Assembly: GCF_988243305.1 (NCBI RefSeq)
Contig: NZ_OZ547136.1
Reading direction: 5' to 3' (one strand)
Length of the DNA stretch: 64,000 bases
Shown here: positions 703 through 55,965 of the stretch, one piece after another
Layout: each line of letters opens with the position of its first letter
Position numbering within the stretch: position 1 is the first letter of the stretch
Made by a program: the position numbers and the translations under genes
The notes under the pieces: generated by a model
Database searches by the model: none
The model's input: only the letters and a program-made list of their open reading frames with translations
Told to the model about the DNA's origin: nothing

Positions 703-2226
703 TTAAATGCTGGCGAACGCCATTGCCACTTCTGTAAAGCGCGATGTATACGTGTTTCTGGTCTCCGTCCTCAGATAGGGATTACCTTCGGGTAGCCGCC
801 AGCGGAACAGCTTCTTGCCTTGCCCCACCAACCGGTACAGTATTTCGCCGCTGAGCTTGCCGTGATTGGTTTTACCAAATAAAACCCACGTTTTGCTCTG
901 ACCCGGTTTCGGTGATTTACACCACCACCTCATCAGGGAAGCGATACCTGTACGGTATTTGCGGGCCAGCCAGTGAGCCAGCTTCCAGAACACGACACGG
1001 TCGATATAACTGAAGACTTTGGCCTTAAAATCAACGAACTGATAGAACATGGCCCAGCCTTTCAGTTTTCGGTTGAGTTGTTCAGCCATATCGACTTTGC
1101 TTTCACTGTAGTTGCCTGATAACAGTGCTGTCAGCGATGCGGCGAAGTTTCTGGCTTTCTCCTGCGGGATCGTTGAGACCACTCGCATCTCGCCATAACG
1201 ACTGCGTTTGCGAATGATCCTGTGCCCCAGAAAGATAAAGCCGTCATTAACATGGGTGATTTTAGTCTTATCCATGTTCAGCCTGAGTTTCAGACTGCCT
1301 TCGAGCACACCCCGACACTCCTCCCTGATGGCTTCCGCCTGTGCTTTGGTGCCTTTGACGATGAGGACAAAATCATCGGCATAGCGGCAGTACGCCACCG
1401 CGGGTTTCCACTGCCAGTTTTCTCTGACCGCCGTACTTCGGCCCCGTTGGATACTGTTATTCCAGTACCACCGATCTTTTCTGGCTTTCCCGCTCAGGTA
1501 GCGCTCATGCAGGTATTGATCGAACTCATTCAGCATGATGTTCGATAATAGCGGCGATATAGCACCGCCCTGTGGCACACCTTCACTGGCCGCCCGAAAG
1601 AGACCGACATCGATATGTCCCGTCTTGATGGTTTTCCACAGCAGAGTCATGAAACGTGCGTCACTGATCCTGCGGCGTACAGCCTTCATCAGCAGTCGAT
1701 GATGTACGGTGTCGAAGTAACTGGACAGGTCGCCTTCAATCACCCAGCGTCCCCGGGTTTCACCACAGTCTGTGAGCTGTAATTTCACCGTGCGGATCGC
1801 GTGGTGGACACTGCGCTCAGGCCGGAAGCCATATGAGAGCGTATGAAAATCACTCTCCCATATCGGCTCCATCGCCATCAGCATGGCCCGCTGAACAATA
1901 CGATCCCGCAACGCGGGGATACCCAGTGGTCGCAGTTTGCCGTTGCTTTTAGGGATGTAAACCCGTCTGGCGGGCAAGGGCTGGTAGTGGCCTGAGAGTA
2001 ATTCATCCCTGAGGATTTGCAGCTCAACAGCCAGTCTGGCCTGTAGCATTGTTTTGTTCACGCCATCAACGCCGGGGGTATGGGCCCCCTTTGATGAAAG
2101 CGTGATCCGCGCCGCTTCAGCCAGCCATTCTGGTTGTGTTATCAGACGCAGCAGCCGTTGAATCCGTAGGGACGGATCGGTGGCTGCCCATGTGGCAAGC
2201 TTGCGTTGCATTTCGCTGATTATCAA
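703..2226 (-). CDS. Group II intron-encoded protein (reverse transcriptase/maturase)
   Basis: 507-aa ORF with RT motifs (PGVDGV near N-terminus, YADDFV active-site box) and a C-terminal maturase (X) region. No obvious HNH endonuclease motif. Start codon uncertain. Confidence 0.85.
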   Translation of the reverse strand: MIISEMQRKLATWAATDPSLRIQRLLRLITQPEWLAEAARITLSSKGAHTPGVDGVNKTMLQARLAVELQILRDELLSGHYQPLPARRVYIPKSNGKLRPLGIPALRDRIVQRAMLMAMEPIWESDFHTLSYGFRPERSVHHAIRTVKLQLTDCGETRGRWVIEGDLSSYFDTVHHRLLMKAVRRRISDARFMTLLWKTIKTGHIDVGLFRAASEGVPQGGAISPLLSNIMLNEFDQYLHERYLSGKARKDRWYWNNSIQRGRSTAVRENWQWKPAVAYCRYADDFVLIVKGTKAQAEAIREECRGVLEGSLKLRLNMDKTKITHVNDGFIFLGHRIIRKRSRYGEMRVVSTIPQEKARNFAASLTALLSGNYSESKVDMAEQLNRKLKGWAMFYQFVDFKAKVFSYIDRVVFWKLAHWLARKYRTGIASLMRWWCKSPKPGQSKTWVLFGKTNHGKLSGEILYRLVGQGKKLFRWRLPEGNPYLRTETRNTYTSRFTEVAMAFASI

Positions 2227-35995: not shown

Positions 35996-36194
35996 ATCTT
36001 ATCCGACCTTTCAGGCCAGATCCTCGGAAGGGGAAGTTGATTAATTTGTGTGAAATACACATTGAAAGCCGATTCGAAGAAAGTGAACCGGCATTTTCAG
36101 TGGCTAGTATAGCGTAAGGTACTGTAAAGTCGCCAGAGGGTTAAAATTCAGACTGCTGATAAATGCAATACTGCCTGATGCGCTATGCCAATCA

Positions 36195-37420
<1,226 letters not shown>

Positions 37421-37421
37421 C

Positions 37422-37480
<59 letters not shown>

Positions 37481-37596
37481 GCAGTCCTTGCAATATATTG
37501 AATTTGGACGATTTTGTAGGCCTGGTAAGGCGTTTACGCCGCATCTGGCATAAATAAAGCGCACTTTATCAACAATCTACATTTGTACCCGTAACG

Positions 37597-46470: not shown

Positions 46471-46600
46471 GGGTTGCTATGCCTGATGCCGATTCGTAGG
46501 CCGGATAAGGCGCTCGCGCCGCATCCGGCGGTGGTGCGCTGAAGCCTGATGCGACGCTTACCGCGTCTTATCATGCCTACTGGGAGCACGCTTTACACCG
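46471..46600. repeat. REP/BIME palindromic units
   Basis: GTAGGCCGGATAAGGCGCTCGCGCCGCATCCGGC and ...CTGATGCGACGCTTACCGCGTCTTATCATGCCTAC REP consensus copies. Confidence 0.7.
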
Positions 46601-51336: not shown

Positions 51337-52710
51337 ATGCGCATTCATATTTTAGGAATTTGTGGCACGTTTATGGGCGGTCTGGCGATGCTGGCGCGCC
51401 AGTTAGGCCATGAAGTAACGGGTTCGGACGCCAATGTGTATCCGCCGATGAGCACCTTACTTGAGAAGCAAGGCATTGAACTGATTCAGGGTTACGATGC
51501 CAGCCAGCTCGATCCGCAGCCGGATCTGGTGATTATTGGCAACGCCATGACCCGTGGAAATCCGTGTGTGGAAGCGGTACTGGAAAAAAACATCCCTTAT
51601 ATGTCAGGTCCACAGTGGCTGCACGATTTTGTGCTGCGCGACCGCTGGGTGCTGGCCGTTGCCGGTACACATGGCAAAACCACCACCGCGGGAATGGCGA
51701 CCTGGATTCTGGAACAGTGCGGTTACAAACCGGGATTTGTGATCGGCGGTGTGCCGGGGAACTTTGAGGTTTCGGCGCGTCTGGGCGAAAGCAACTTCTT
51801 TGTTATCGAAGCGGATGAGTATGACTGCGCCTTCTTCGACAAACGCTCTAAATTTGTTCATTACTGCCCGCGTACGCTGATCCTCAACAACCTTGAGTTC
51901 GATCACGCCGATATCTTTGACGACCTGAAAGCGATCCAGAAACAGTTCCACCATCTGGTGCGTATCGTTCCGGGGCAGGGCCGTATTATCTGGCCAGAAA
52001 ACGACATCAACCTGAAACAGACCATGGCGATGGGCTGCTGGAGCGAGCAGGAGCTGGTGGGCGAGCAAGGTCACTGGCAGGCGAAAAAGCTGACCACCGA
52101 TGCTTCCGAATGGGAAGTCTTGCTGGATGGCGAAAAAGTGGGCGAAGTGAAATGGTCGCTGGTAGGCGAACATAATATGCACAATGGCCTGATGGCGATT
52201 GCGGCGGCTCGCCATGTTGGTGTAGCGCCGGCAGATGCCGCTAACGCGCTGGGTTCGTTTATTAACGCTCGCCGCCGTCTGGAGTTGCGTGGTGAAGCGA
52301 ATGGCGTAACGGTATATGACGATTTTGCCCATCACCCGACGGCGATTCTGGCAACGCTTGCGGCGCTGCGTGGCAAAGTTGGCGGTACGGCGCGCATTAT
52401 TGCTGTGCTGGAACCGCGCTCGAATACCATGAAAATGGGGATCTGCAAAGACGATCTGGCACCTTCATTAGGTCGTGCCGATGAAGTCTTCCTGCTGCAA
52501 CCAGCGCATATTCCGTGGCAGGTGGCAGAAGTGGCAGAAGCCTGCGTTCAGCCTGCACACTGGAGTGGCGATGTGGATACGCTGGCAGATATGGTGGTGA
52601 AAACCGCTCAGCCTGGCGACCATATTCTGGTGATGAGCAACGGCGGTTTTGGTGGGATCCATCAGAAACTGCTGGATGGTCTGGCGAAGAAGGCGGAAGC
52701 TGCGCAGTAA
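51337..52710 (+). CDS. mpl: UDP-N-acetylmuramate:L-alanyl-gamma-D-glutamyl-meso-diaminopimelate ligase
   Basis: 457-aa [38 protein letters not shown]... (Mur ligase family). Confidence 0.9.
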
Positions 52711-52865
52711 TTCGGCCTCAGCCTGATATAGTGTGCGTAGGCCGGATAAGGCGTTCACGCCGCATCCGGCATTTGAGCATAGTGCCTGATGCGACGCTTG
52801 ATGCGTCTTATCAGGCCTACAGGTGCACCGCATCCGGCAAACCATACTCACATCAACAACGAAAA
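52711..52865. repeat. BIME/REP cluster
   Basis: Several REP units: GTAGGCCGGATAAGGCGTTCACGCCGCATCCGGC, GCCTGATGCGACGCTTGATGCGTCTTATCAGGCCTAC, ACCGCATCCGGC. Confidence 0.75.
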
Positions 52866-53417
52866 TTACCCTTCATTCTCCGCCAGTTCGCGCAGATACT
52901 GGAAAATCTGGCGTGCGGATTTCGGCGGCTTATTCCCTTCTTTCTCTTTCTTCGCGTTACGGATCAGAGTACGCAGTTGCTGACGATCGGCATCGGGCCA
53001 CAGATTTAATACCTCAGCGATGGCGTCATCACCTTGATCGATCAGGCGATCGCGCAGGTTTTCCAGTTTATGGAACAGCACCACCTGCTGGTTGTGACGG
53101 TTTTTCAGCTTATCCAGCGCCTGACGGATCGGTTCTACATCGCGCTGGCGCAGCATCTTACCGATGAGCTGCAACTGGCGGCGGCGACCTTCCATCTTAA
53201 TACGCTGGGCGAGCTCAATAGCCGCGCGCAGATCCGCATCTAACGGGATCTTATCCAGCGCGTTTTTCCCCAGATCAACAATTTCCGCGCCAAGGCGTTT
53301 TAGCTCCTCGGCATCACGTTTAATTTCACTTTTACTGACCCAGATAATTTCATCGTCTTCGTCTTCGATGTCATCACCGGGAACGTCGTCGAGCCAGTCT
53401 TCGGGCTGCTTAGTCAT
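52866..53417 (-). CDS. yjgA: Ribosome-associated DUF615 protein
   Basis: 183-aa [43 protein letters not shown]... Confidence 0.85.

Positions 53418-55849: not shown

Positions 55850-55965
<116 letters not shown>

Follow-up and report, generated by a model that had tools for sequence, protein, structure and literature searches.

IS621 is said to insert at a specific position within the REP sequences of E. coli, as reportedly described by Choi, Ohta and Ohtsubo in 2003 (J Bacteriol 185:4891). In the bridge-RNA system worked out for this element, the target-binding loop (TBL) of the bridge RNA encodes ATCGGGCCTAC whereas the natural target is ATCAGGCCTAC, the mismatch at position 4 being tolerated as rG:dT; a 3' GCA flank is preferred and marks 4 of the 10 most-used genomic sites, and the RE-LE circle junction rebuilds a sigma70 promoter from which the bridge RNA is transcribed (PMC11208160). 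The same work mapped 173 experimental genomic insertion sites in BL21(DE3), of which 144 fall in REPs and 129 are identical to ATCAGGCCTAC. Its Supplementary Data 2 contains 834 unique natural targets of 50 nt, reconstructed from the sequences flanking elements with the TBL ATCGGGCCTAC, and 596 of these targets contain ATCAGGCCTAC (Durrant et al. 2024, PMC11208160). ISPpu9 and ISPpu10, members of the IS110 family in Pseudomonas putida, likewise home sequence-specifically to abundant, mostly neutral REPs of their host (Tobes & Pareja 2006, PMC1525189), although host, REP family and bridge RNA guides differ from those of IS621. What is already known, then, comprises REP targeting (Choi et al. 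2003) as well as the 11-mer itself, its bridge-RNA mechanism and the fact that vacant sites abound (Durrant et al. 2024).

The 64-kb stretch of DNA that was analysed, the window, contains three copies of the IS621 target, two vacant and one filled, a density that fits at least 129 sites per genome of ~4.6 Mb (size from record lengths). The filled copy holds a resident IS621 with the following parts:

36191-36199, plus strand: ATCAGGC-CT, the left half of the target that is now filled, lying in a degenerate Y REP at 36172-36199
36200-37478, plus strand: the resident IS621, 1279 bp long with a single CT core included
36200-36390, plus strand: LE, 191 nt, exact match to the published one
36214-36390, plus strand: bridge RNA gene, 177 nt, 100% identical to the published one
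36263-36271, plus strand: LTG AUCGGGCCU, in the bridge RNA's target-binding loop
36287-36293, plus strand: RTG with extension, UGCGUAG (GUAG preceded by UGC), in the bridge RNA
36391-37371, plus strand: ORF of the IS621 recombinase, whose 326 aa are those of the published protein
37372-37476, plus strand: RE, 105 nt, exact match to the published one
37479-37483, plus strand: right half of the occupied target, AC-GCA, on the other side of the element

Since LE, RE, bridge RNA and recombinase match the reference (Supplementary Table 1 of Durrant et al. 2024, PMC11208160) as exact strings, we take the resident to be a wild-type and apparently functional IS621. RefSeq labels loci identical to it as 'IS110-like element IS621 family transposase'. 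The element lies between paeA and msrA, and ~1,249 of the 5,426 complete E. coli genomes carry this insertion together with its flanks. The CT core is present at both junctions, the left one reading ...CCAATCAGGC-CT/TGTATTATCC... (ATCAGGC-CT/TGTATT) and the right one ...AACAGTAT-CT/ACGCAGTCC... (ACAGTAT-CT/ACGCA), and in silico removal of the element plus one CT yields the empty site ATCAGGC-CT-AC(GCA).

Some 15 kb from the resident, the 155-bp spacer that separates mpl from yjgA, two convergent genes, holds the copy of the target that is of main interest here, site 1:

51337-52710, plus strand: mpl ORF, 457 aa (RefSeq annotation of identical loci)
52737-52771, minus strand: Z1-type REP with tail ATCCGGCCTAC on the minus strand, inverted partner of the Y REP
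52783-52820, plus strand: Y-type REP, TGCCTGATGCG...CGTCTTATCAGGCCTAC, whose tail is the IS621 target and whose loop has TTGATG (52798-52803)
52810-52820, plus strand: vacant IS621 target, site 1, with left target 52810-52816, CT core 52817-52818 and right target 52819-52820
52828-52839, plus strand: partial Z repeat CCGCATCCGGCA, 12 nt, 3' of the Y REP and a direct repeat of 52760-52771
52866-53417, minus strand: yjgA ORF, 183 aa (RefSeq annotation of identical loci)

The REP labels Y, Z and Z1 follow what we take to be the Gilson/Bachellier nomenclature. A sequence-only reading of the window had claimed an unoccupied perfect copy of the IS621 motif here, identical to the rebuilt empty site of the resident and placed in a REP of the mpl-yjgA BIME, and each part of this was borne out: an intact ATCAGGCCTAC, reading ATCAGGC-CT-AC, is present on the plus strand, the junction sequences of the resident give the same 11-mer, and a Y-type REP paired with an inverted Z-type REP has the 11-mer as its final 11 nt. 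Site 1 matches the natural IS621 target (Durrant et al. 2024, Nature 630:984, PMC11208160; Hiraizumi et al. 2024, PMC11208158) at 11 of 11 positions, with the CT core at positions 8-9, and shares with it the LTG/RTG pairing and the REP setting as well; it differs from the most-used targets and from the resident site in lacking a 3' GCA, the flank being AGG, and in being empty in every complete genome examined.

The surroundings of site 1 are those of a Y REP in a BIME, namely an extragenic imperfect palindrome (GCCTGATGCG...CGTCTTATCAGGC), a CTAC tail and a neighbouring inverted Z-type REP, and it is this pairing of a Y-type with an inverted Z-type REP that makes the mpl-yjgA unit a BIME. The Rfam model RF02564, naRNA4, which describes the REP325-type BIME, matches 52740-52817 with 86 bits (gathering score 59.5), and as a single strand the unit gives a strong hairpin of -63.8 kcal/mol (RNA parameters). 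Like E. coli BIMEs of the naRNA4 (REP325) kind, it lies between convergent genes and consists of a Y REP joined by a short linker to an inverted Z1 REP. Its Y tail points outward and is followed by the 12-nt partial Z repeat, whereas in the BIME-1-like unit of the resident IS621 the Y tail points toward an L (IHF-type) motif, TGCAATATATTGAAT. In a census of REP tails across the window, the intact Y-type REPs, at 52783-52820 and 55863-55899, both end in CTTATCAGGCCTAC, and the Z-type REPs (GCCGGATGCG...) terminate in ATCCGGCCTAC. The window also has another BIME, with a naRNA4 match at 46499-46577 (67 bits) and REP tails at 46567-46580 (plus strand) and 46496-46509 (minus strand); the Y-like REP with the former tail carries ATCATGCCTAC, one mismatch (position 5) away from the IS621 target.

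That vacant landing sites stand beside the element in the same chromosome had been claimed on the strength of site 1, and the window in fact holds two, the other (site 2) having gone unmentioned in the sequence-only reading:

55889-55899, plus strand: second vacant ATCAGGCCTAC, site 2, with 3' flank ACA; tail of the Y REP 55863-55899 in the nrdD-nrdG intercistronic BIME

The genes on either side of site 2, nrdD and nrdG, both run along the minus strand, so that insertion at this site would probably have a polar effect on nrdG. The site 2 50-mer occurs in only 634 of the 5,426 complete genomes and is absent from the 834 entries of the published natural-target list. Two further observations concern the other end of the window. 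A match to the Rfam group II intron model at 613-699 (65 bits) lies directly downstream of a 507-aa ORF (703-2226, minus strand), and the two together (613-2226, same strand) probably make up a bacterial group II intron that is intact, the ORF being its intron-encoded protein. An ALIL pseudoknot, the frameshift element of the IS3 family (Rfam RF01497; 3226-3342, minus strand; 121 bits), indicates another IS near the window start.

Computed pairing with the LTG is alike at the resident site, site 1 and site 2, with eight Watson-Crick pairs and the rG:dT at position 4, and the RTG core plus RT (GUAG) pairs in four of four positions at all three. The RTG extension (UGC) pairs as follows:

Resident site, 3' flank GCA: 3 of 3
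Site 1 (52810), 3' flank AGG: 0 of 3 Watson-Crick, 1 wobble
Site 2 (55889), 3' flank ACA: 2 of 3

Site 1 is thus without the optional 3' GCA extension, which gives a 7-bp RTG-RT pairing and is a feature of high-efficiency targets, not a defining one. The extension is not required, since 238 of the 596 natural ATCAGGCCTAC targets in the published set have an A at position 12 and nine have the flank AGG itself. Moreover, a 13-nt stretch at site 1 (ATCAGGCCTACAG) recurs in ...ATCAGGCCTACAGA..., the wild-type oligo that Durrant et al. used as in vitro target (PMC11208160), and we infer that it would be a competent target of ordinary, not top, rank.

Taken together, it is very probable, judging from the sequence, that site 1, as the Y-REP tail in the mpl-yjgA BIME, offers IS621 and its RNA-guided recombinase a competent attachment site that is at present empty. 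By the mechanism established for IS621, which is carried over to the window by inference, the element would excise as a circle, and the promoter rebuilt at the circle junction would give rise to the 177-nt bridge RNA. In the target-binding loop, the LTG AUCGGGCCU would pair with the bottom strand of ATCAGGC-CT, with rG:dT at position 4, and the RTG, GUAG, would do so with CT-AC on the top strand, while the donor loop would hold the circle junction ACAGTAT-CT-TG; the DEDD/serine recombinase would then swap strands at the CT core, so that the element would enter between 52818 and 52819, in plus orientation and with no target duplication. Nothing in the letters of site 1 indicates that it is defective, and we explain its vacancy by the rarity of transposition, the presence of well over 100 equivalent REP targets per genome and the missing GCA extension.

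The most direct indication of use comes from the published targets. Entry seq93 of Supplementary Data 2, ACGCTTGATGCGTCTTATCAGGCCTACAGGTGCACCGCATCCGGCAAACC, equals positions 52794-52843 of the window exactly (PMC11208160). This 50-mer is single-copy in 4,679 of the 5,426 complete E. coli genomes, so that seq93 identifies the mpl-yjgA locus unambiguously. The published target list thus puts one or more natural IS621-type insertions at site 1 on record, with the caveat that the supplement gives no source genome for seq93.

The survey of related genomes at the mpl-yjgA REP that the sequence-only reading had proposed therefore gave a divided answer, the 50-mer being identical to seq93 but the site being occupied in 0 of 5,426 complete genomes. 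With chimeric queries made of 200 bp of unique flank and 200 bp of an IS621 end, neither the left nor the right junction of site 1, nor the left junction of site 2, was found at ≥80% coverage in any of the 5,426 complete E. coli genomes. The best partial matches of these queries were IS621 copies in other BIMEs, one of them in the nagA-agaS spacer of E. coli MB53 (L001, 1422-2700). That copy sits in a REP-like palindrome at the off-consensus target ATCCGACCTAC, two positions from the canonical one, a target that rules it out as the source of seq93. The junction of an IS621 inserted at the mpl-yjgA site (seq93) would read AACAGTATCTACAGGTGCACC. Exact scans of JGI metagenome contigs for the site 1 junction gave 0 matches with a 25-mer and 0 with a 22-mer, shortened to tolerate a K-12 SNP. 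Among 589 contigs of draft and metagenome assemblies with the exact YjgA protein, the 10 distinct contexts listed were all vacant. IS621 right ends in the complete genomes number ~12,000, an estimate obtained as 17,657 places minus 5,425 genomes with one flank match each, and more than half of the genomes are without any (median of one place per genome). With not a single occupied site 1 despite ~12,000 right ends, natural use of site 1 must be very rare.

Elsewhere, the element behaves as expected. Ten IS621 copies sampled at distinct loci (L015-L024), all 1279 bp long, have the rebuilt targets ATCAGGCCTAC (eight), ATCGGGCCTAC (one) and ATCGGGTCTAT (one). The proposed homing of IS621 to REPs is supported by the REP-type tails at nine of these ten and by the 144 of 173 published insertions, and insertions, far from never coinciding with the 11-mer, carry ATCAGGCCTAC in eight of the ten sampled copies, in 596 of 834 natural targets and in 129 of 173 experimental ones. 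The resident and nine of the ten sampled copies conform to the REP targeting of Choi et al. (2003), and site 1 is one more vacant REP of the same kind. As to their wider context, the resident (window 37479-37550) and most sampled copies (L016, L019 and L021-L024) are BIME-1-like, with TGCAATATATTGAAT ~10 nt 3' of the Y-REP tail. The published natural-target file has ~272 entries ending in (A/T)TTGAAT, and TGCAATATATTGAAT, an L/IHF-type motif, is absent at both vacant sites of the window. Such a BIME-1/IHF-motif context, or else the GCA extension, might conceivably bias where IS621 inserts.

The empty locus itself is conserved. Neither a K-12 derivative nor a divergent strain differs at site 1, the intact 11-mer at the mpl-yjgA REP is found in BL21(DE3) also, and the genomes with the 50-mer (86% of the total; 3,054 of them at ≥99% identity) include K-12-type strains; ~14% are without it. 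In the alignment, a short mpl-yjgA allele (e.g., L002, strain 4238) lacks 68 bp that correspond to the linker and the whole Y REP, a presence/absence polymorphism bounded by the 12-bp direct repeat CCGCATCCGGCA (52760-52771 and 52828-52839). Because the deletion removes the Y REP, the IS621 target is lost in those strains. The short allele was seen in ~1/8 of evenly spaced rows sampled from the genome matches to mpl-yjgA. In 17 of 5,425 genomes the 801-bp mpl-yjgA region is not intact (≥80% coverage), and neither of the IS621 junctions is found there.

Could the vacancy of site 1 say something more specific? One may contrast its emptiness in all 4,679 complete genomes that carry it with the msrA-proximal site, which is filled in ~1,249, and suppose that perfect ATCAGGCCTAC sites are used very unevenly in nature, for some reason other than the 11-mer itself, a view that we regard as doubtful. 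A candidate for such a reason would lie in the REP itself. Insertion at 52818/52819 would set TTGATG (52798-52803) 17 nt upstream of the TATTAT of LE; as a -35 element TTGATG matches in four of six positions, against three of six for the TTGCAG of the circle junction (TTGCAG-17-TATTAT) and two of six for the TGCGCT of the resident junction. By this comparison, the hybrid TTGATG-17-TATTAT would be a sigma70-like promoter at least as good as that of the circle junction, and one may speculate that it might drive constitutive bridge RNA and recombinase expression, quick re-excision and hence only transient occupancy.

Less credible again, and in our judgement quite improbable, is a site that resembles a target by REP consensus only and is blocked by REP structure, by bound host proteins or by the missing GCA. 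Such a block would account for a site unoccupied in 5,426 complete genomes, including the ~1,249 that have an identical IS621 15 kb away, and the absent RTG extension and the strong single-strand hairpin of the mpl-yjgA BIME could be seen as its causes. Against it, a locus-specific 50-mer stands among the published natural targets rebuilt from element flanks (seq93), GCA is dispensable by the counts given above, the standard in vitro target is ATCAGGCCTACAGA, and most experimental insertions hit REPs of like structure (PMC11208160). We give still less weight to the idea that site 1 is a footprint-free scar, left by the precise excision of a past IS621. The scarless excision of the IS110 family (PMC11208160) would leave exactly the sequence of site 1, and one or more natural occupants are on record (seq93). 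A scar and an ancestral vacancy are indistinguishable by sequence, but the empty 50-mer is present once each in 4,679 genomes, 3,054 at ≥99% identity and K-12-type strains among them, and in over half of the genomes IS621 right ends are missing altogether, so ancestral vacancy is the simpler reading. Finally, a chance occurrence of the 11-mer unrelated to REPs or IS621 can practically be dismissed, since 0.00 exact copies are expected in the 64-kb window (100 dinucleotide-preserving shuffles) and two are observed, each at an identical place in a full-length Y-type REP, an excess that comes from membership of the REP family and is not an independent event.

We thus return to site 1 as a very probably competent attachment site that is simply empty. 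The 11-mer is frequent because REPs are, the consensus of Y-type REPs having this sequence as its 3' tail, and vacant canonical targets are to be expected in any E. coli chromosome with well over 100 such REPs; the sole addition to published knowledge is the naming of one specific vacant REP. Conserved, single-copy, flanked by convergent genes and present in 86% of genomes, the mpl-yjgA REP could serve as a neutral landing pad for insertions guided by the wild-type bridge RNA, and a comparison of filled and never-filled perfect sites could yield context rules for the site choice of bridge recombinases.
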